Notes: generated from the sequence alone by a model not told the origin. Numbered from the stretch's first letter, positions 2,201-64,000 are shown. The stretch is 64,000 bases of DNA from Macrostomum lignano (GCA_002269645.1 NIVC01002550.1:38119-102118); one strand, 5' to 3'. Made by a program: numbers and translations.

Positions 2201-3057
2201 AACCGATCTCACTCATGATCGCGGGGGAATTCCAGTGAAAAAAATGTACTCTATAAAATTTAATCACGTGATGCCCCAAATGATCTTGTCCACTCAGAAA
2301 AACCTGAGAGTGGGGATTCCCACGGTTAGCAGCACTAGATTGCAACTCTCTAGAATTCCTTATTAGTAAGTTCTTCACAGACTCACGCATCACTGCTCAG
2401 CTAAGAATCATTGACAGAACCGGTGCACACTTGAGTCTAATGGCTCGCCTTGGCTCCTCCTTGCAGCACTTAAGCCGACAGGCAGATATGATCAGAGAAG
2501 ACCAACCTTGAAGAAAGATAATTATTTGCTTCATTACGATGCTCAGGTCTAAAGTAATCCATCTTAGCACGATTCTCTGCTATTTGTATAATTGTGGCCC
2601 TTCAAATCAAATTTAATCCATTGAGACACGAATGTTTCATTACATACGATCCTAATTAGGATAATTTTCATCGAATATACCTTCAAATGAATAAAACAAT
2701 ACAAGCAAAATTAATAAGCTTTTCTATCCTTGCAATTATCCGATTTGCATAATTATATCATTATTACAATTGAGCTGCCACTCAATCTTCATCAAGCGAC
2801 TGTATTACTGTTTTATCTTCATCCAATATCATACCCTAACATCGCATCGGGGGAACACACGCCAAACTCAGAGTTAGTTTATAAGCAAAATGCGCGTCTA
2901 TTGAAAAATAGAACGAATTTATTTTTCATTTCAAATCGCGACTTCTAGATTTGCCAATTAGCAGAACAATCAGATTGGCTTGTTTGGGAAAAACAAGCTT
3001 GAGTTGAAAAGGCAGCAATATTGTTGTTGTACTCGCTTCAGCTCAGAGGGAGTGGCG

Positions 3058-3899: not shown

Positions 3900-6800
3900 T
3901 CAGACAGGCACCCCTCTGGTCCGCAGGTACTCCCTAGCCTTGGCGTGCTCCCGCACGTCCCACACCTGAAATCCGGTCAACCCAGTAATCCCCAGCACGC
4001 ACTGACAGTCAGGGTTCACTGTCAATTTAGTCACCTCGCCGATGTTCCAATTTCTATTAGCCAAGGACTTCCATTCGCCGTCGGGATTGGAGCGCCACAG
4101 TCTGACAAGGCCGTCAGCCCCGCCGGTGCAGAGAAGGCCGGAATCGGTCAGGCAGAGGCCGCTGCAGGCTCCGTCGTGAGCAGTCAGGGTGGACACGGGG
4201 GCGCCGGGGGCTCGGGCGTCGCAGCGCTGCACGGAGCCACGCTCGGTAGAGGCCATCAGGAAGAACGGATTCCGGCTGTCCCAGACTAGGCGCTCGCATT
4301 CGCCGTCAAGACGCCACGATGGGGCGGAGCCGGCGGCTGGCGCTGATGAGGCTGAAGATGCTGACTGTTGCTGTTGTTGTTGAGGGGCTCGACAGTCTGA
4401 CAGACGAACTGTTGAGTCGTAGCCGCCAGTGAGCAATAGGTGAGGCTCCTGTCAAATTTATTACTAGAGATTATTATTTCAGCGGTTATTTTGCCTACTA
4501 ACAAGTAGCGAGATTAGAATATATGAAATCGATTAACTTGTTAGTGTACGTAATTCATGGGGTTGTCTTGAGGGCGATTCTTGGGGTTGTCTGGAGGGAG
4601 ATTCTTGGGTTGTCTTGAGGGCGATTCTTGGGGTTGTCTGGAGGGAGATTCTTGGGTTGTCTTGAGGGCGATTCTTGGGGTTGTCTGGAGGGAGATTCTT
4701 GGGGTTGACTTGAGGGGCGATTTTTGGGGTTGTCTTGAGGGGCGATTCTTGGGGTTGTCTTGAGGGGCGATTTTTGGGGTTGTCTTGAGGGGCGATTCTT
4801 GGGGTTGACTTGAGGGGCGATTTTTGGGGTTGTCTTGAGGGGCGATTTTTGGGGTTGTCTTGAGGGGCGATTCTTGGGGTTGTCTTGAGGGGCGATTCTT
4901 GGGGTTGTCTTGAGGGGCGATTCTTGGGGTTGTCTTGAGGGCGATTCTTGGGGTTGTCTTGAGGGCGATTCTTGGGGTTGTCTTGAGGGGCGATTCTTGG
5001 GTTTGACTTGAGGGCGATTTTTGGGGTTGTCTTGAAGGGCGATTCTTGGGGTTGTCTTGAGGGGCGATTCTTGGGTTTGTCTTCAAGGCGATTCTCGCTA
5101 TGCTATCTCACAGCCGAGCTGCATTACCTGCGGGTGCCAGGCCAGGCACTGCACCTTGTCAGAGTGCAGCTTGTCCAGCATCCTGACGCAACGCTTAGCG
5201 TCCAGATCCCACAGGCCCACAGATTTGTCGGCGCTGGCGCTGGCCAGAGCCTGGGGGGAGCGCGGATTCCAGGAAACGTCCAACACAGCGTCTTTGTGAC
5301 CTGAGGATAGCGGATAGTATATATTCAATAGAGTTCCAATTCGGAACTGAAGGCAAACGCAAACAAGAATCAAGTCGCCAGCCTTACCGACCGTCGAGAT
5401 AATCAACGATTCTGATACTCAATGTACACCCCTGTGCGCCAATCAGCACTTCGCCTCAGTGCAGCCTTGCCAAGCATCCAAATTTTATCAGCACAAAGCC
5501 GGAGCTTCTGGACCTTCAACAGGTCGCACCAGGTGACCAAATCTCGAACAGTGGGCAAACTTCAACTGCTGGACATCCTTAACGAATCTCTCAAGCATTC
5601 CACCATACCCCCTTCGTTAATTCCAGGCTGAAGACACGCTCACACAGGGTGCACAACGGCCCTAATTGACGGTCTAATCGTCAAGCATGTACACTCTCTG
5701 TACATAAAAAGTGCACACTTGCCTTCCAACTGCACAGACGGCAGCAGAGCCTCGATCAAGTCCAGATCCCACAGCTGAATGGACTGCTCCATTCTGCCAA
5801 TAGCCAGCAGGTGACCGCCCCTGCCAACAAATTCGAAGCACAGCGGCATCGAGTCCAAATAGAAGCACCTGTGCTCGTAGAACTGCTTATTAGGCTCATT
5901 GTAAACGTGTATTTGAGCCTCTGAGATGCCCTGGTTCTGCTGCACCTGGGCAACGACAACCAGATTGTCTGTTGGCACCAGCTTGGAGTCCTCGTCTTCG
6001 TCGTCCTCCTCGTCGTCTGTGCCGTCATCAGCCGCGTCTGCATCAGCCGGCTGGATGTCGTCAATGTCTTCGGCATCGTCGTCTGGCGCCTCGTTCTCAG
6101 CGTCGCCGCCAGCGTCAGCGTCCATGACCTCGCCGCCTGACTGTCCTGCGGCAGCGGCTCTGGCAGCTTGGCTAAATTTACAGAGAAGTAGCTTTGTTTG
6201 AGTTGGTTGTAGACAACTGCTCACAGCTCTTTGAGAATTCTTCATTGAACTGTTGATAACCATGATTGGATATTCTGTCTGCCCCTCCCCTCAGACCCTT
6301 CAGTGCCTGCTGCCCCTCCCCTCAGACCCTTCAGTGCCTGCTGCCCCTCCCCTCAGACCCTTCAGTGCCTGCTGCCCCTCCCCTCAGATCCTTCAGTGCC
6401 TGCTGCCCCTCCCCTCAGATCCTTCAGTGCCTGCTGCCCCTCCCCTCAGATCCTTCAGTGCCTGCTGCCCCTCCCCTCAGATCCTTCAGTGCCTGCTGCC
6501 CCTCCCCTCAGACCCTTCAGTGCCTGCTGCCCCTCCCCTCAGACCCTTCAGTGCCTGCTGCCCCTCCCCTCAGATCCTTCAGTGCCTGCTGCCCCTCCCC
6601 TCAGATCCTTCAGTGCCTGCTGCCCCTCCCCTCAGATCCCTCAGTGCCTGCTGCCCCTCCCCTCAGACCCTTCAGTGCCTGCTGCCCCTCCCCTTAGACC
6701 CTTCAGTGCCTGCTGCCCCTCCCCTCAGATCCTTCAGTGCCTGCTGCCCTCCCCTCAGACCCTTCAGTGCCTGCTGCCCCTCCCCTCAGACCCTTCAGTG

Positions 6801-9250
6801 CCTGCTGCCCCTCCCCTTAGACCCTTCAGTGCCTGCTGCCCCTCCCCTCAGATCCTTCAGTGCCTGCTGCCCTCCCCTCAGACCCTTCAGTGCCTGCTGC
6901 CCCTCCCCTCAGATCCCTCAGTGCCTGCTGCCCCTCCCCTCAGATCCTTCAGTGCCTGCTGCCCCTCCCCTCAGATCCTTCAGTGGCTGCTGCCCCTCCC
7001 CTCAGATCCTTCAGTGGCTGCTGCCCCTCCCCTCAGATCCTTCAGTGGCTGCTGCCCCTCCCCTCAGATCCTTCAGTGGCAGCTGCCCCCCCCCTCAGAT
7101 CTTTTAGTGGGTGCTATAGCCCCATTATATAGCCTGTATATGAGTGGGCACCATTACCTTTACCCTAATCTTAGCAGTTTATATTTAGAATATTGATTTG
7201 CAAAGTCAAGTTAAAGCTATTAAGACTTACAGATCTCGTCTTGCTTTGGCAGCCTCATCATTTAATAACTGAGCATAGTTTTCATCTTTGTCTGCCTAAA
7301 ATTAATGAAAAGATTGTTTTCTTAAAGTTCTAACAAAGTTAAGTTAATGAGACCAAATAAATTAATAGATAATTTTGAAAGACTAACATTCTAGTTAATT
7401 AAAGGTATTAAGTTACTATTAACATTTATCATTTAGGACTAGGTTTATTTGAACTAGCAATAAAGCTGAAAGTGAATACAATCTATTTGTGTAACTGAAT
7501 CAATAACTATGTACCTAATTTTATATATAGTTAATCTAGATAGTTTTTACACAATTAAAACAATTGGCTTGCATTTGTAATGCATAGCAAAAGAGCTAGC
7601 AATTCAATTAGCAAAAAGTTAAAAATATAAAAGCCAGCAAGCAAGCTTTTTTAAATTCTACCTACTAAAACTCAATGTCTATAACCAAAACATAGAGGCC
7701 TAGAAGGAATAAAAATTGGTTTCACTTTAGATACCACCATTTGCATTCTACATGCCATATTGTAGATTATATTATATATATTTGGCTATCAAGTAATATA
7801 TATAGAATGCTAGAATAGTATGCCAATCAAGTGTTTTATTAAATTGTATGAGTATACCAATTAAAATTTTATGACTAACAAACACAGAAAAAATGCAATA
7901 AGCAATAGACACTATAAGTAATTCCTGCAAAACATGAAACCTATATCATTAAAAAATAGAAATAATTAATAGAACAAAAGTTTTTATATATATTATAACA
8001 TTGATTTAGGTTCATTTTTTATTAGTAACAATAGAAAATTTTTGTGTATTATTTGAAAACTTAATTTATTGTCATCTTTTGAAATTAACTTTAATAGGTC
8101 TTTAGCAAAGGATTGCTTAGGCTTAGCATAATTTATTTATATAATATAATAATACATTCTTTATGCTTTTTTTTGCATTGCACTGCAAGCTTAAACAAGT
8201 TTGGTTAAGAACTTTAAGCCAATAATGGTGCCAGAAAGTTGCATTTTCTTCTTGTAAACCCAATGTACATGAGCCAAACTAAAGCATTTGTTCAATTGTT
8301 TGCTAGATGTACACCAGTAAAGCATTTGTATGCCATAATTTTTTGGCCAATATTTTCTGCAATGGCAGTGCTTATTTTCTGCTTATCCGCACGGCACACT
8401 GACGAGATAAGTCAATAAAGTGAATAAAGTGAATAAAGAGAATAAAGCGAATAAAGCAAATTGTTAAAGCAATGCAATAATCGATACAAACAAAATTGCG
8501 AATTCACATGAGTAGTAAAATTCTACGGAAGCGGCAATGGACTATATAAATCACAGCGAGATCAGATTAGACTTTGCTAAAAATTTAAATAATAAACAAT
8601 TCTTAGAGTAAATTTAATTTAAATCATTTGTTACTACACAAAAAAATTCTTTCTCATAGAAAATTCGTTAAATCTTTATTTCTTTAGAACAACTGTTCAA
8701 GCCAAGTTATGTTGTTATACTGCACTCAAATCGTATGTACTAAACTTCCCACACATCTTATGTAGAAGATAGGGCAGCTATCTCGTCAGTGTGCCATGCG
8801 GATAAGCAGAAAATTATTCGCATGGTACCGTTGGAATAAGACAAATTATTCCTACGGTACCATGGGGATAAGCACTGCCTTCTGCAATATGCGGTCTACA
8901 TGTATATTTGATAATTGATATTCTCTAAAACTATCATCTTGACAAATCTAACTTTATTTTTTTTCTTTTTTATGCTGCAGTTGGCATCATTTGGGCCAGT
9001 TTTTTATTGGGGCATATTCTTTATTTGCCATTTGGTCTTAAGTTAACATGAATCATGAGAGGAATATTTTATAAATATAAAATTACTTAGAATATAAGCT
9101 CATCACGATCTGGAATATTGTATTTTAAGCCTAAAAATATACTTTATGAACTGTGTGTCAATGTATAGGAAAACTTACATGGCGTGGTACAATATCAAAG
9201 CATCCTTGAGGCACCCAACAATGGGTTGGATAAAACTTTCGCTGAGACAT
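3900..9250 (-). CDS. PWP1: Periodic tryptophan protein 1 homolog (WD40 ribosome-biogenesis factor)
   Basis: Exons (minus): 9250-9179 (MSQRKFYPTHCWVPQG..., resembles the PWP1 N-terminal WVxxG motif), candidate 23-nt micro-exon 9109-9087, 6171-5723 (acidic tract; VYNEPNKQFYEH...IQLWDLDLIEALLP), 5300-5128 (GHKDAVLDVSWN...LASASADKSVGLWDL...HSDKVQCLAWHP), 4448-3900 (LLTGGYDSTVRLSDCR...). Splice phases are consistent. The intron at 5722-5301 has a GC donor. Confidence 0.9.
4558..5095. repeat. 24-25-bp intronic minisatellite (GGGGTTGTCTTGAGGGGCGATTCTT)
   Basis: Tandem repeats inside PWP1 intron 5127-4449. Confidence 0.95.
6281..7103. repeat. Minisatellite family B, 31-bp unit CCCCTCCCCTCAGATCCTTCAGTGCCTGCTG (copy 1)
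   Basis: Tandem repeats in a PWP1 intron; the same unit occurs at 60.76-61.07 kb and 63.87 kb. Confidence 0.95.
8364..8879. mobile_element. Mutator-like MITE (516 bp, 9-bp TSD)
   Basis: Perfect 9-bp direct repeat TTCTGCAAT at 8355-8363 and 8880-8888. Ends are GGCAGTGCTTAT...ATAAGCACTGCC, plus an inner ~35-bp inverted repeat (TTTTCTGCTTATCCGCACGGCACACTGACGAGATA). There is an internal AATAAAGTG x5 repeat and no ORF. A 9-bp TSD with G-starting TIRs fits MULEs. Confidence 0.8.
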
Positions 9251-24595: not shown

Positions 24596-25123
24596 ATTTC
24601 TTTCATTGATTGCGGCCCTATTTCATGGAAATTAATATCTTCGTGGGCACCAGCATCAGAGGCACTTACGATCCGTATTAAAATATACTTATCCAGGAAT
24701 AAAATACATGGAACTAAGTTTGTTGGTAAAAACAATCGCCGAAGTTGACATTTATTTGGGCAATTGGTTTAATTTCGCTACCCGATCAAAAAGATGTGGT
24801 TTAACATCGACGTAGCATAGCTTTGATTTGAATAATAGTTCTAAACTATTGATCGAATTCCATCATTAGTTATTTGATAAAAACCTAATCGAGATTTTAA
24901 CGCACATCTTTGGTATTAAAAAGCACAACGCCTAAAAGTTTGAATAGAGAAATATTTTTTAAATAAATCGCTGATTCAATATTAAAAAACATGGTTGGTT
25001 ATTACAGGTAGTTTGGGTGTCTTACAAAATTTTAAAATATTGTATAAATATTAGAATGTTCCAATCATTCCGCGCCAGTCTGTCAGTCTGGAGTGCCGGA
25101 TGTTCAAGTCCATGGCGAATGGC

Positions 25124-26773
<1,650 letters not shown>

Positions 26774-31606: not shown

Positions 31607-33046
<1,440 letters not shown>

Positions 33047-34314
33047 GCCATTCGCCTTCCTCGATGAAGCTTAGATGACTTTGAAAAATTGAACATAAAT
33101 TTGTGGACAATTTCTCAATACTATTGATTGAATTGTTAACATCAACGCGATGGCTGTTTAATATCGTTTTGAGTCGAGATAATTAAACTTGTAAAACAAT
33201 ATTGGCTAAGCACAGGTCAACGAAATATAAATAGAATGCCTTTTTTAAATACTTGAACTGAAAAGTTCGTAATTTGAGTTCTCTTTAAATCCAGTGCTTT
33301 TGTTTTCTACTTTATGACTTCTTAACTCGAGATGTATGTACAATGCGTATGAATGAGATCTCGAAGATATTGAACGATGTGGAGTAATGCATTTATTATG
33401 CTTGATTGTGCGCCAGAGCCAAAGCTGTTCTTAGTGAAATCTTCGAAGGCCAGCAAAATTTGCTACGGAACCGCTAATCTGAGGGTCAACTATGCAGCCG
33501 CATTATAGTTACACACAGGGTATAAAATTAGAAATTCAAATCGAACGGTTTTCCTTGCTAATAACAACAACAGGATATGCTAAACAGCATAAACTGACAA
33601 GTGAACCTTCGGAATGTATTTAAGGATAGATATTAAGCATCTAATTTAGTTGAAATTAACACGATAGACTCGCCAAAAACTTGGACAGAACATTTCTATG
33701 GTCAGGTTTCTGACAAAGCTACAATACTTTGTATTCAGGGTTGATGCTGCATCCTGCAAGATAGCTCGTAGCATGCAATGGGAAGATGACGCACTTCAAA
33801 AATCTTTCCATTGCTCAATTCAAATCAAATTGTTAAGCAAAATAATAAAGATCTGATGGGTTGTATTAGTTGTGTTATTTAGTGCAGAGTAGCATTGAAC
33901 GCATGACTCACAACAAGCTTACGTTTGTATAGATAAAAATTATAACTGTAGCTGATTGTCACAACACACTACTGCGTTCACAAATACAAGTAGCGTAGTT
34001 AGAATTTTTAACTAAGAACTTGCAGTGGTTTGAAGAAAATGAATAAAATGAATACCGCTAATGTGTATAATGTTGTATTAATAAGAAGGGACTCGACTAT
34101 GTGCGGACGACGAGCGTACGAGTATTTTTATATCAGTTTAAGCGCATAGATCCAATATTTTTGTAACACAGTTACAAAATAGTATATATCATTCCAAAAC
34201 AAACCCCACAACGGCAATGCATGCTGTGTGCAGATGCTAAAAGTTTTCTGCTGTTTGGATGATCTTCTCTCTTAATGAACAGTTTGTTGTTTCAGTGATT
34301 TGTATATCTGAGAG

Positions 34315-58638: not shown

Positions 58639-60494
58639 ATGCCGCAGTCAAATCGTTATTACGACCTGAACCTGCTGGACAGGCAGGAGGCCATGGTGGC
58701 TCGTAGCCAAAATCTCGGCTATTCGCACCTGGCATTCGCTTCGGTGCACACCAACATCAAAGTTCCACCGCCGCCGCCCTCACCTCTGCCAACAGCGGCT
58801 GGATCTTCTGGTTCCGGTAGGCTATGGCGAATGAGTATATCAGAGAGCATATCGAAGGTCCTAGTGGTGAAGCTTTAGTGCTGTTGAACTTTGTTTTAAA
58901 GGGTACGGATATTTTTTATAATGAAGATAAAATTGAAGTTAAGTTCAGTGAGTCAAAGTTCCTGAGGTGTGAAGTTAGGTGACTCAAACTTCCTGAGGTG
59001 TGAAGTTAGGTGACTCAAAGTTCCTGAGATGTGAAGTTCAGTGACTCAAAGTTCCTCAGGTGTGGAGTTCAGGGACTCAAATTTCCTCAGGTGTGGAGTT
59101 CAGGGACTCAAATTTCCTCAGGTGTGAAGTTCAGGGACTCAAAGTTCCTCAGGTGTGGAGTTCAGGGACTCAAAGTTCCTCAGGTGTGGAGTTCAGGGAC
59201 TCAAAGTTCCTGAGGTGTAAAGTTTAGTGACTCAAATTTCCTGAGGTGTGAAGTTCAGTGACTCAAAGTTTCTGAGGTGTGAAGTTCAGTGACTCAAATT
59301 TGCAAGAATGCGCAGTGACAGATATTTAAACTTCAAAGCATATTTTCTCCATCAACCACTCCGACTCCAGGCTCTGTGTGGTCCCGCACGGGAAGTCGCG
59401 TATGCCGTCTCACCCTAGCTTTCGGGCCGGAAGTTCAAGAAACCGAGCTGAAGTCCTATTTCCGTCAGCACGCCAAAGAACTGGAGGCCTACGATCTGTT
59501 AGCCGTGCTGCCTAAGAGCCAATCGGCTCTGCACGCCTGCGCAGAGACTCTGCCTGTGGATCTCATCGCTTGCGATCTGGGCTCGCCTAAGTTGGAGACA
59601 TTCTGGTCAGATTTTCGCGACATTCGAACAGCAGTTAGGCGAGGTATTAAGATTGAGGTTAGTTGCGACGCCGGATCATCCGGACACTTGAGAGTGTGGA
59701 GTTGCTATAGGCAGGCTGACAGGCCGACTTAAGCTACTGACAGATAGATATTTAGGTATCTAGAGACACAGACACTAACTCAGACAGACAGACAAATAGA
59801 CAGATAGGTATACAAACAAACACTAAGACAGACATGGAGACATGGACAGGTGGCAGACAGACAGAGACATACAGACAGGCAGGCAGACAGACAGACAGAC
59901 ATACAGACAGACAGACAGACACTAAGACAGACAGACAGACAGACAGACAGACAGCCAAGGCCACCAATCAGAGCCTGTGCCACCCGCCCATCCCCGCAGG
60001 TGTCCCTGCAGCCCATGCTGCACTCGCAGCAGAGCCGCATCCTGGCGGCCACCCTGCTGTTCGAGCTGCTGACCTCGGCCAGGCTGTCCCCAGACGGGCT
60101 GGTGCTCAGCTCGGGCGCTCTCAACCAGTGGGATCTGCGCGACCCGTTCGGTGTCTGCGCCCTGGCCGCGTCGCTAGGCGTGCCGCCAGACAAGACCAGA
60201 GCCTGCCTGTCAGCCAATTGTGAGTCAGCAGTTGAGCACGCGCTAGTCAGACGTAAGACTGCTCACGGCGCCCTGGCTATTGCTCAGATTGCTAAGCTGC
60301 CGGGCGTGAGCAGCGTGCAGCTGGCAGATTCGGATTCTAAGAGATCGTCGGGTAGGAAGCGACCAGCCGCCGAGGAAGCTCAAGTAGATGACGGCATGAC
60401 CGACTTGACGGAGCAGCAGGACCGCCTTATCGACCTGCTGTTGCCGGCAAGACCAAAGAAGAAAAAGAAAAGCGGAGCTGTTGTTCGAATATAG
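58639..60494 (+). CDS. RPP30: Ribonuclease P/MRP protein subunit p30 (319 aa)
   Basis: Exons 58639-58816 (YYDLNL...NLGYSHLA), 59371-59657 (RLTLAF...YDLLAVLPKSQSALHACAETLPVDLI...AVRRGIKIE), 60000-60494 (LVLSSGALNQWDLRDPFGV...KKKKK). Phases are consistent. Confidence 0.9.
58935..59300. repeat. 31-bp intronic minisatellite (GAAGTTCAGGGACTCAAAGTTCCTCAGGTGT)
   Basis: Tandem repeats in RPP30 intron 1. Confidence 0.92.
59740..59955. repeat. (CAGA)n microsatellite-rich tract in RPP30 intron 2
   Basis: Direct tetranucleotide runs. Confidence 0.9.
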
Positions 60495-60761
60495 GGAATG
60501 CCGTGCTACTAAAAGTAGGCAAAGTTTAAATTTTGGTGGGATTTGTTCCTGTGCCAAAACAACAAGTTGTAAAATTGTAACTTTAACAACTTAATAATGA
60601 TTTGCTTGTATTTTTGAAGTATAACCGTTGCTAATTTAGTCTGAACTATGCATTTGTTCCTTTGCGGCCTGTTATTGACTGTGATGAGTCAGTCTTGTTA
60701 CTTATTTTATTTCACTTTTTCCGTTTAGCATTGCTTAAGCTAGGGGAGGTCTTTCCTAACC

Positions 60762-61066
60762 CCTCAGATCATTCAGTGCCTGCTGCCCCTCCCCTCAGAT
60801 CCTTCAGTGCCTGCTGCCCCTCCCCTCAGATCCTTCAGTGGCTGCTGCCCCTCCCCTCAGATCCTTCAGTGCCTGCTGCCCCTCCCCTCAGATCCTTCAG
60901 TGGCTGCTGCCCCTCCCTCAGATCCTTCAGTGGCTGCTGCCCCCCTCCCTCAGATCTTTCAGTGGCTGCTGCCCCTCCCTTCAGATTCTTCAGTGCCTGC
61001 TGCCCCTCCCCTCAGATCCTTCAGTGCCTGCTGCCCCTCCCCTCAGATCCTTCAGTGGCTGCTGCC
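60762..61066. repeat. Minisatellite family B (31 bp), copy 2, left part; resumes at 63868-63899
   Basis: Same unit as 6281-7103; interrupted by the Polinton-derived insertion. Confidence 0.9.
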
Positions 61067-61271
61067 AGTAGTAATAGAAAATTACGTCCATACCCATTTT
61101 TTTCAATTGCAAAACACGTAATAAGGTAACCCGTCAGAAATTTTATTCCGCACATACCTTTATTTTCCTATAAAATCAAGTAGTAAGATACCGAACCAAA
61201 TGGTAGGGTATACAACAGGAATTCTAACTACACTGCACCGCACCCACAAATAATTCAAAAGAAGAAAAGAT

Positions 61272-61889
61272 CTAAATTTCGATCAACCAACCAACTTGTC
61301 CAAAAACGCACTTTCCGTATATTTCTGCATTACAAGAACAGAGGCAACTAATGTGCTGTAAAGCGTCGTAGGCAAAAATACACGCGCCGAAATTCATTTC
61401 TTCGACGAGGCTCACAACCGTTAAAAAGAAGCGAAGGCTACCACCACGAGTCAGTTTGAAATACAAACAAAACAACACCCAAATACCACAATGTCCAGAC
61501 CGAGGATCCTGAATAGCAAATCGGCTGTAGGACCAATTTTGAAAATCCCCACATTCTCGCCCCAACCACCGTCTAATATTTTCCGGCGGATTTAAACCAA
61601 GCGAATCAAAATATTCCCCGACCCTTCGTCCACGGCCCCCCCCCCTAACCCGCCTGCTACTCACCCAAACTGCAACCCAATGCCTACCAGGAAGATTCGA
61701 AGTGTCTGTATTCGCCACAAAGAAATAGTCTTTACCATCTAAAGGTAATTGTCCAAGAGTTCTAATCGAGTCCTGAGGATACACACCCAAAAAGACAACA
61801 CCAAACAATCTCATACATAGAATTGTAATAATTGACCGCAAGAATCTGTCACTGGCACTCTGCAACATGTTCAGATTCACTTCCTCCAT
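61272..61889 (-). CDS. Polinton/adenovirus-type cysteine protease (adenain family), 205 aa, intact
   Basis: FLGVYPQD...VANTDTSNLPGRHWVAVW...EYFDSLG...IQDPRSGHCGIWVLFCL carries the His-Asp-(Gln)-Cys catalytic set in adenain order. Intronless; ATG at 61889. Confidence 0.88.
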   Translation of the reverse strand: MEEVNLNMLQSASDRFLRSIITILCMRLFGVVFLGVYPQDSIRTLGQLPLDGKDYFFVANTDTSNLPGRHWVAVWVSSRRVRGGGRGRRVGEYFDSLGLNPPENIRRWLGRECGDFQNWSYSRFAIQDPRSGHCGIWVLFCLYFKLTRGGSLRFFLTVVSLVEEMNFGACIFAYDALQHISCLCSCNAEIYGKCVFGQVGWLIEI

Positions 61890-62600
61890 GCTGTGCCGGC
61901 ACGACGTCGCGAAGCTCCGTGATCTGCAGCTGCTTGTCAAATAGACCACCGAATATTACATTGTAGACAACGCGCTTGTTGCTTGAGCGAAGCGCAACTC
62001 CAACTTTACATTTCCTTCCTTATAGAGCTGAGCACCATGCACGTTACGTCTACGCAAAAAAGCGAGAAAAGATTCAAAGCCACCTACCATGTCTTTTTAG
62101 CGGTCTGTCTCGGACAACATACTCCGCCTCCGCAGAACTACCCTCTTCGAAAAGAGTTTTTACAAGAGCGTCGTATCTCCTTTTGAATGCCTTCAGAAGC
62201 CGATTTTTGGTGCTTCCTCAACACCAACTCTCGAACAGGACCGCTACTTGGCCCATTTTGCAGTATTCGCCGAGAATTTTCTAGTCTTGTCTTTACACTA
62301 GCATTGCATTCACTACGAATATGGACAAATCCGCCCGAAAGAAAGAACTAGCTGAGCGATATGTGAGAGACGGTAAGCAATTATTGGGCTTTTTGTTTAT
62401 TAAGAAGCTGATCGGGTAGTAATGGGCTGCGTCTTCTCTCTTTGCAGCGTTCAAGAACGGGGTCTTTGCGCGGCCGCCTCCGGGTTATATGTACCCCGAG
62501 AATGTCGCGGTTGCGAGGGCGAATATGCCTTGGCAGTGCAAGCCCTAGGTACTGGGTGGTACCGCTTTTTCTTCGGGAGATGAAGTCTGGAAAACTGACG
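61849..62600 (-). pseudogene. Frameshifted remnant of the Polinton major capsid protein (PY) C-terminal half
   Basis: Successive minus-strand frames give ...AHYYPIS..., LFCVDVT, GNVKLELRFAQ and IFGGLFDKQLQITELRDVV, resembling from memory the Polinton MCP C-terminus (YP; FAFDLT; GNVRLEVRFA; IVYAEFDNLLEID..RNV). The core match is 61900-62075; the upstream part is weaker. Confidence 0.5.
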
Positions 62601-64000
62601 ACTATGGACTATTGGGACTTGACTGCGGACGCCTGACTGCGCAATGGAACGATACTGATATGTAGTTGTTCGTATATAATTTGGTAATATTAATGTCTAC
62701 TTAGTATTGTAATAATCCACTATTCATTAGGGAATTTAAAGTTATTTAAAAGACGGTCATATCGCAATTTTGCGTTCGTTTGCCTTAGTTTACCATAAAG
62801 AATTTAACATCATGATACTAAAACTGTATCCGATCTGTTCAAATATATAGAATAAGACAAGTCAAGTCGATTCGACCCTAAGACTGTTTCTCACTACGAA
62901 GGTTCAATTTATTATTGTGCATGGCCGTCAGTACCGAGCTCAGAAGGATCTCGTCACAGCAACACTTACAATTACCCGGTTTTTTCGGATGTGATTGGTT
63001 TGTAGATCAGTGACTGAGAATTGAAAACAGATTATGTCTTTTGGCGTGTTATACTTTAGTCCGTTAAATTCAAGTATACTTAGTTTTTTGAGCAAGTGAT
63101 AGTACAACGAACAGGAACGTTGGCGAAGAACTGCAGAAATGAACAGGTTGGACAACGAAAAAATGATATTGAAGCATTCAATCAAGACAGTTTAGTGGCT
63201 TACGAATGTTAGAAATTCAAAATATGAATGTATACCGAGCCGAATAACTGTTAAGATATTTGGTGGCCTACTACTGTCTTAAACTAACTTTTTGTCCCAT
63301 CTTTGAAGTATGTATATATTTGGCTGGTAAATTTCAAATACGTTTAAAATAAAAAATAGGAGTTTGTATCGTTCGTAATTCTCAATGGTCTTTTCTTGAA
63401 AATTTAAAAATTGGGGTCTTGAATGACTCCTGGTACGAAAGGCAGTATGGGGAGAAAGTATAAGGCGCAGCAGGCGGCTTATTTACTGCCTGTAGCCTAT
63501 TCTGAGCTGGGTTTTGCTTGCAGAGGGATTGTGGCACAATTTCACTTCTGCAATTTATTAAGCTCTTTTCTTTTGTTCTTTGTGGGTGCGTGTTTCCCCT
63601 ATTCTTGTAATGCAGAAATAGCTATGTCGTTTTTCAGCAACTTGGTTGATCGGTGTTGTTGGGGTCTTTCTTTCTCGTTCTTTGTGGCTGCACTGCAGTT
63701 TAGTTGGAATTCCTGTAGAATACCCTACCATTTGGTTCGGTACCTTATTTGATTTTTAATACAAAAATAAGGTATGTGCGTAATAAAATTTCTGACGGGT
63801 ACCTTATTACGTGTTTTGCAATTGAAAAATGGGGTATGGACGTAATTTTCTATTACTACGAGCTACTGCTGCCCCTCCCCTCAGACCCTTCAGTGGCCGC
63901 TATTCTCCTTACTTAATTAATATTTCTACAGTGATAAAAGCCAAATAAATGTGAGCATATCTCGCCATCTCACTGCAGCGCTCAGACCAGGCATCATGAA

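Follow-up and report, generated by a model that had tools for sequence, protein, structure and literature searches.

Short non-autonomous Polintons are listed in Repbase, and internally deleted DNA transposons are familiar from the Ds, KP and MITE types. Mavericks carry 5'-(AGT)2//(ACT)2-3' ends according to two studies (PMC8097293; PMC10748475), one of which describes 96% of vertebrate Mavericks as degraded (PMC8097293). Polinton remnants of four sizes are reported at the eri-6/7 locus of C. elegans (10.1101/2024.01.15.575659), and another report describes PolB-less polintons of butterflies as still mobile (10.1101/2025.02.07.637071). A study of the anole lizard genome states that non-autonomous Polinton copies were not seen there (PMC3014272). 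Our own literature search returned no mobile Polinton of 2-3 kb and nothing related on Macrostomum Polintons; the term 'non-autonomous polinton' was met in literature about Tlr1.

The element described here lies in a window of 64,000 nucleotides from Macrostomum lignano (C2550:38119-102118), within which all of our coordinates are counted. It occupies 61067-63867, a span of 2801 bp between two GCTGCC hexamers on the + strand (61061-61066 and 63868-63873), inside a 31-bp minisatellite of the host. A first-pass annotation of this DNA had described a GCTGCC TSD, AGTAG...CTACT ends, long TIRs and a minisatellite split by the insertion, and each of these observations holds. The TSD is present on both sides of the element, with the left hexamer the same in all five copies of the element in this genome; agreement of six bases by chance has p ~2.5e-4, and an exact 6-bp TSD also flanks all six of the both-ended relatives that could be paired. 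The element starts with AGTAG and ends with CTACT. The minisatellite, the insertion target, comprises 9.9 units at 60760-61066 and is back in register after the TSD, resuming at 63868-63900.

The TIRs had also been described as intact together with the TSD, and this stands for the TSD and needs qualifying for the TIRs. Based on alignment to a full-length relative (C2529, described below), the arm at 61067-61348 corresponds to the parent's right, protease-side end and begins with (AGT)2, and the arm at 63592-63867 corresponds to the parent's left end. The arms align over 282 bp and are 81% alike, with 7/116 and 11/154 mismatches at the tips (6-7%; the latter alignment contains 5 gaps). At the right end of the element the sequence reads GCTACT instead of ACTACT, with 7 extra bases within the terminal motif of the family in all five copies. 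Exact (AGT)2//(ACT)2 motifs are found at both ends of C2529 and at the left end alone of the element.

Two candidates for an empty site were rejected. A second array with the same 31-bp unit lies at 6279-7109 and has other, unrelated flanks, and a 2807-base skip in sequencing run X12 is a minisatellite-to-minisatellite join with only 21 letters on its short side. Searches of the assembly with both unique flanks yielded no empty site; the flanks always lie beside the element.

The assignment of this unit to the Polintons is borne out by its relatives. The terminal 20-mer of the element has 55 matches in the genome and its reversed control has 0. The same 20-mer ends a full-length relative of 18,773 bp (C2529:17164-35936; TSD CAGGTC), the autonomous Polinton with matching TIRs that the first-pass annotation had suggested seeking, whose TIR tips are identical over all 160 terminal bases. 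Its ORFs encode TBP-like, dNK, PolB (PF03175, E=1e-20), dUTPase, PLA2-like, ATPase, pX-like, integrase-chromodomain (PF00665, E=8e-6, below the curated cut-off) and protease proteins, and a 470-codon frame scores 0.98 with Atlas clusters in which 14-24% of members carry PF21738 (DJR-like). The label of minor capsid in the parent is presumptive and taken from gene position. Another full-length copy lies at C889:26751-45674 (TSD GGGGAA); its right half matches that of C2529 at 96%, its left half is a different one, and its TIR tips show 4/119 mismatches. A non-Polinton superfamily with a 4-bp TSD is ruled out by the 6-bp TSDs and by the gene content of C2529. The element is a Polinton-derived fossil, neither an autonomous Polinton nor a demonstrated non-autonomous family.

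Comparison with these relatives resolves the element into three pieces. The first (element bases 1-974; 61067-62040) is the right end of the parent, with the TIR, the protease and about 52 capsid codons, at 5.1% substitutions to C2529; the second (element bases 973-1213) is an internal part of a 234-codon ORF, at 4.6%. Collinear homology to C2529 thus extends over 1.2 kb at about 5% substitutions. The third piece, the rest of the element, comes from a sister subfamily, whose left end it represents; its stretch at 62280-63591 shows 7-11% substitutions to C1157, and a full-length copy with this type of left end was not found among the 40 of 45 candidates scored. The pieces meet at two deletion junctions. 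Junction 1 (62039-62040), with a 2-base microhomology, removes 3212 bp holding most of the capsid gene, the integrase and two further ORFs; contigs from two runs, X8 and X12, read across it. Junction 2 (62275-62279), with a 5-base microhomology, removes about 13 kb holding PolB, the ATPase, the minor capsid and accessory genes, and is bridged by an X8 contig. Because contigs of independent runs bridge the junctions, an assembly artefact is ruled out for them.

What remains between the TIRs agrees with the gene content first noted, namely an adenain-type protease ORF, a capsid-like remnant, and neither replication nor integration genes. The protease lies on the - strand at 61272-61889 (ATG at 61889, stop at 61272). 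Its frame matches ASFV pS273R at E=4.8e-5 and Pfam Peptidase_C48 weakly (E=0.082, below the cut-off), and it is 89% identical to the parent protein across 157 residues. His-Trp, Phe-Asp-Ser, Gln and Cys-Gly motifs, carrying the His, Asp, Gln and Cys, are visible in it, and we take these to be the motifs of an adenain-type protease. Three database relatives near its length, all unnamed or hypothetical, were found among 164 candidates; two homologues in Logan are at 49% identity. The capsid remnant (61894-62039, - strand) is the end of the parent's major capsid gene, its last ~52 codons in two frames, and these C-terminal codons are all that we found of the packaging ATPase and the major and minor capsid genes. 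The internal fragment of the 234-codon ORF, which in the parent lies upstream of the integrase (62039-62279, - strand), has five more small deletions of 11, 42, 3, 7 and 1 bp. The parent PolB has no tblastn match in the element, the integrase is absent, and seven further frames of the element together with the parent-ORF remnant have no match in Pfam.

The 2.8-kb form is present in five copies that are 0.1-1.2% apart: the window copy, an inverted pair on C1153, and one copy each on C679 and C4410. All five have one TSD and near-identical host flanks. Host DNA in common with the window extends for about 18 kb on C1153 and C679 and about 8 kb on C4410, at 94-100%, and of the two unique flanks, left and right, each is found at exactly five places, in every case beside the element (5/5 candidates scored). 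The junctions of the element are complete at these five places and nowhere else (35/35 candidates scored). Since the copies share TSD and flanks, and the flanks occur nowhere else, we conclude that they go back to one insertion that was multiplied along with host DNA. Redundant haplotypes may account for some of the five, and several single-base losses private to the window copy (after 61895, 62227, 62573 and 62734), which the runs lack, may be assembly errors. M. lignano is described as a recent polyploid with extended paralogous regions in two studies (PMC10733133; PMC5704211).

These results bear directly on the proposal of the first-pass annotation that the short form is itself mobile, as a non-autonomous or satellite mini-Polinton whose protease serves as a virion-maturation module. 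Five near-identical 2.8-kb copies with a clean TSD, four of them with the protease core motifs present, would suit such a family. The expected occurrence of the same junctions at different 6-bp TSDs was not found, all five copies having one TSD, and the common TSD and flanks rule out a mobile mini family as the origin of these copies; in this assembly the proposal is largely refuted, and we regard it as very improbable. The capsid is also down to 52 codons, and the TIRs have decayed, with an interrupted right terminal motif. There is a general caution here: where the host is polyploid, near-identical copies with a clean TSD, five in this case, can pass for a mobile family until their flanks are compared.

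The state of the protease argues in the same direction. It is broken in all five copies, in two independent ways: in four copies the loss of 10 bp after 61418, which recurs in contigs of 4/4 runs, shifts the frame close to the C-terminus, near codon 172 of the parent's stop-to-stop frame, and the C679 copy has a stop in the His-Trp motif together with an indel. A stop six codons early is common to all five. Private changes in the protease of the window copy number 8 synonymous and 12 non-synonymous, which a weak test does not tell apart from neutrality (p 0.08-0.21). In the parent no gene lies between the protease and the right TIR, and this position explains the retention of the protease, because any deletion that spares that end retains it. 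Of the other short forms in this genome, those of 2.1 and 1.9 kb have the protease only in part, and that of 4.1 kb has none. The idea that a virion-maturation module was kept is therefore unsupported, the gene being TIR-adjacent and broken in every copy.

Decay of the insertion can also be followed among its copies. C679 keeps stretches of 42 bp and 10 bp that are missing from the other four copies and present in the full-length relative, so small deletions continued in place once the host block had been duplicated. The divergence of the TIR tips exceeds that of the copies (at most 1.2%), and most of the residence of the element would therefore predate the host duplications, provided that the arms were identical at insertion, an assumption to be read against the 4/119 mismatches that the full-length C889 copy already shows. 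The element has also diverged faster than nearby non-repeat host DNA (30/2791 vs 43/7824, p=0.007).

A small two-exon viral accessory gene, overlooked in the first-pass annotation, is present in the element. It is an accessory gene of the parent's left end and lies on the + strand, with exon 1 at 62321-62372, a GT-AG intron of 75 bases at 62373-62447, whose donor and acceptor are conserved in relatives, and exon 2 at 62448-62636; a public 80-aa model (P0004) covers it. The intron is skipped in contigs of X8 and X12, from two studies, and retained in X1 and X4; X8 and X12 are labelled 'DNA?' and 'RNA?', and their RNA nature is guessed from uneven cover. One X8 contig spans 61705-62371 with 0 mismatches, across both deletion junctions, and the splice joint is found at the same depth and place. 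Spliced RNA from this type of element is therefore likely. The exon-intron layout is the same in the full-length C889 copy, and a homologue exists in a second, young Polinton family of this genome. P0004 has no match in Pfam, where 0/7 alignment members fell below E=0.1, and none in PDB; no homologue beyond its own model was found among 127 candidates, and its structure model, at pLDDT 59, matched no viral fold at E<=0.001.

The neighboring host gene offers a likely source for this RNA. The last exon of an RNase P p30-like gene lies at 59961-60494 on the + strand (PF01876, E=1.9e-8, 34.4 bits vs a cut-off of 35), and its stop is 572 bases ahead of the element; this exon and the spliced RNA share a strand. 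RNA across the element is likely to stem from host read-through, the simplest source, or from a leftover TIR promoter; read-through is favored because a same-strand host exon ends 572 bases before the element. This arrangement raises the question of whether the host keeps the remnant, either as an expressed small viral gene or for 3' signals of the RNase P p30-like gene. The GT-AG splice in two runs of two studies, the contig crossing both junctions without a mismatch, the public protein model and the missing empty site are compatible with such a role, as is exon 2, whose 62 codons are open, in identical frames, in two of the five copies (C1153b and C679). However, in three copies, that of the window among them, the frame is cut off near 62510, identity between C1153b and C679 over 186 bases is expected by chance about 1 time in 4 at a distance of 0.7%, and the runs are guessed to be RNA. 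Between subfamilies the small gene shows 20.5 synonymous and 13.5 non-synonymous changes, with 22% synonymous sites; the purifying selection lies between viral subfamilies and does not postdate the insertion. Together with the faster divergence of the element than of host DNA, these observations make host co-option a distinctly unlikely explanation.

The wider family places the 2.8-kb form among other shortened copies. With C2022 left out, the 55 end matches fall into about 18 flank groups, five of which have both ends and an exact TSD, at 18.8, 4.1, 2.8, 2.1 and 1.9 kb. We compared the short forms for a common junction and found none shared by the 2.8-, 2.1-, 1.9- and 4.1-kb forms; each has its own junctions and a single site. 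Both ends of the 4.1-kb form are of the left type, with arms of 733 bp that are 98% alike, and this form looks like a copy-back product. In the other end groups a single end showed within 6-30 kb, along with deletions of various kinds and nested insertions. For 26 TIR ends a partner was sought by TSD over 7-30 kb, and none was convincing; such pairing misses decayed ends (a GATTAT pair was missed) and ends displaced by insertions. Interior DNA of at least 80% identity is found at about 8 sites (best 39-40 candidates scored), vs about 18 end groups.

The young family presents a different picture. It has 46 end matches, 45 of them exact, and all ten pairable copies are 14.7-23.2 kb long, short pairs numbering 0/10. 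Short forms are thus confined to the old family, as decay predicts. Of nine young copies retrieved, eight have a 3.16-kb deletion within PolB in common, and nine sites keep the undeleted PolB side. Six of these eight have exact TSDs, at five sites (GACATG twice, CTAACT, CACATT, GACCGC and GGCAGA), and the remaining two have unmatched flanks. In their main alignments the PolB-deleted copies are 99.1-99.97% alike, and they still have the integrase, ATPase, capsids and protease. Because they occur at distinct TSDs, deleted Polintons have been mobilised in this genome.

Taken together, we propose that the 2.8-kb unit goes back to one old insertion of a Polinton whose interior was lost in place and which was copied only with host DNA, and we assign this reading a probability of roughly 0.6. 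Internal deletion after insertion had been named as the alternative in the first-pass annotation, and it is the account that fits best. A full-length element would have been integrated by its own integrase just behind the RNase P p30-like gene, generating the 6-bp TSD. Double-strand-break repair at the site, through microhomology-mediated joining or abortive gap repair after excision, may then have taken out 3.2 kb and about 13 kb, sparing the ends and the TSD. Abortive gap repair is a route to internally deleted P and Ac/Ds elements. The survivors would be whatever adjoined an end, with the protease at the parent's right end and the small spliced gene at its left; alone, the unit cannot replicate, integrate or form particles. 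In favor of in-place deletion, the old relatives show varied deletion patterns, each at a single site. Several observations count against it: no host copy shows a longer or singly deleted stage, the order of the insertion and the two large deletions is unobserved, and the losses directly shown to postdate insertion are at most 42 bp, not kilobases.

Other observations that count against in-place deletion lead to a second account, in which the short genome was made before integration, as a defective replication product of template switching at microhomologies, was integrated once in trans by a helper integrase and decayed thereafter. Four short both-ended forms (1.9, 2.1, 2.8 and 4.1 kb) each have an exact TSD, and one of them is copy-back-like; end-bearing sites outnumber interior sites; and the PolB-deleted form of another family has been integrated many times, with perfect TSDs that differ between five sites. 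The 20-base ends also recur on a full-length element, and mobile PolB-less polintons of insects are described in one report (10.1101/2025.02.07.637071). Against this, every short form has its own junctions at one site only, the mobile PolB-less form is at least 14.7 kb long and has its own integrase, short pairs are missing from the ten pairable young copies, and in-place deletion demonstrably went on. We consider the second account the main rival, possible and tentative. Its broader version, which seems to us just as doubtful, is that flatworm Polintons shed defective sub-genomes in replication, like defective interfering particles, which a helper integrase fixes in the germ line. The 2.8-, 1.9-, 2.1- and 4.1-kb forms and the PolB-deleted 14.7-kb form would then be one trans-complemented continuum, with the 2.8-kb copy, which lies behind a housekeeping gene of the host, still expressing a spliced viral gene specific to the lineage.

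What the element means depends on which of these accounts is right. It is likely to be an ordinary fossil, in a state common among Polintons, and not a mobile mini-virus, and a single decayed insertion of this kind is of little consequence. Should short genomes have been integrated in trans, the element would bear on whether Polintons of animals replicate extrachromosomally and complement one another, and a continuum of shed sub-genomes would, if true, count as genomic evidence that Polintons in an animal share an extrachromosomal phase of replication. The better handle on that question is the young PolB-deleted 14.7-kb form, which occupies at least five target sites beside copies that keep PolB.

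One of the closest known systems is the Polinton/Maverick group (polintoviruses, adintoviruses), with which the element shares the 6-bp TSD, the long TIRs, the (AGT)2 start and a protease beside the major capsid gene. The 18.8-kb parents carry the group's gene set in PolB, an rve integrase with chromodomain, a packaging ATPase, PLA2-like and pX-like ORFs and a capsid-like ORF; unlike an autonomous Polinton, the element is without PolB, integrase, ATPase and minor capsid, and is a derivative. It resembles Ds-, KP- and MITE-type elements in keeping its ends and TSD, with the interior lost at microhomologies, but it has not multiplied at new sites, as a non-autonomous family characteristically does. 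Like the butterfly PolB-less polintons, it has lost replication genes and kept TIRs, and the young 14.7-kb form is of this kind; those polintons are long structural variants, of at least 12 kb in the screen of that study, with several insertions, whereas the 2.8-kb unit has no integrase and one site (10.1101/2025.02.07.637071). The element differs from degraded Maverick fossils in keeping both ends and the TSD and in a small gene that is still spliced, in runs whose RNA nature is guessed. It is like such fossils, and like other Polinton remnants, in being confined to a single site, internally deleted, marked by stops and frameshifts, and one of several sizes within its genome.

Repeated movement of a Polinton that lacks an intact PolB gene is directly evident in this genome, in a young family separate from that of the 2.8-kb remnant. 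The predominant form of this family is 14.7–16.8 kb long and carries a common 3.16-kb deletion within PolB, while retaining its integrase and capsid genes. Copies of this form (C2542:22576-37303 and further copies on contigs C3539, C3924, C4373, C3727, C877, C4450 and C4161 of the assembly G000; stretches L154–L170) are 99.1–99.97% alike and are flanked by at least five different 6-bp TSDs. The undeleted PolB side is present at nine further sites of the young family.

In two full-length relatives of the remnant, those on contigs C2529 and C889, the PolB gene is split at an identical position by a GT-AG insert of ~80–90 bases (near 26850-26930 on C2529 and at the corresponding position in C889). 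This insert, which is absent from the young family, is likely a spliceosomal intron and not a lesion. Full-length Polintons of this genome also contain a TBP-like ORF (C2529:20515-21594, equivalent to L034:516-1595, and also in C889 and C84) that matches PF00352 above the cut-off (E=8.8e-7) and is 45–54% identical from one Polinton family to another. Its Atlas neighbours are mostly viral TBP-like proteins (0.89), which we treat as a lead only, and a literature search combining Polinton with TATA-binding protein returned no title on such an ORF in a Polinton.

The host DNA has features of its own. Two genes of the window (25114-26409 and 31761-33056), which from their translation we take to be beta-tubulin-like, form an inverted pair 99.4% alike. 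Unrelated minisatellites crowd the host DNA of window 1-64000 (80 tandem-repeat rows) and apparently fill introns. Some units reappear in places far apart: a 28-bp unit at 3057, 34314 and 39510 and a 31-bp unit at 6279 and 60760. On one contig (C1153:14500-39000), the host block that carries the 2.8-kb remnant is present twice, in opposite orientations, and this inverted duplication extends over at least 10 kb.

Three full-length elements (C889:26751-45674 and those on C272 and C4009) are mosaic relative to the C2529 element, matching it at 96% in the right half and at 65–75% in the left, and all switch type at one common point. Within the remnant's family TIR length is not constant, and at certain left ends there is a stretch of ~700 bp that was copied from the right end and contains the protease gene's 3′ half (C3235:7583, C1186:45606 and C3476; left end of the C2529 element, positions 675-821). 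Because TIR length varies and left ends carry right-end sequence, we suggest that the two ends have undergone repeated conversion. A 4.1-kb form (C3475:18359-22469, L134; the same site on C2857, C1378 and C1839) has the TSD GATTAT and lacks the right-end genes. Its structure is copy-back-like: both ends are of the left type, and the 733-bp arms are 98% alike. At another family end (C273:271020; L032:6020-6033), a short terminal extension repeats the end motif and resembles the seven extra bases of the 2.8-kb remnant.
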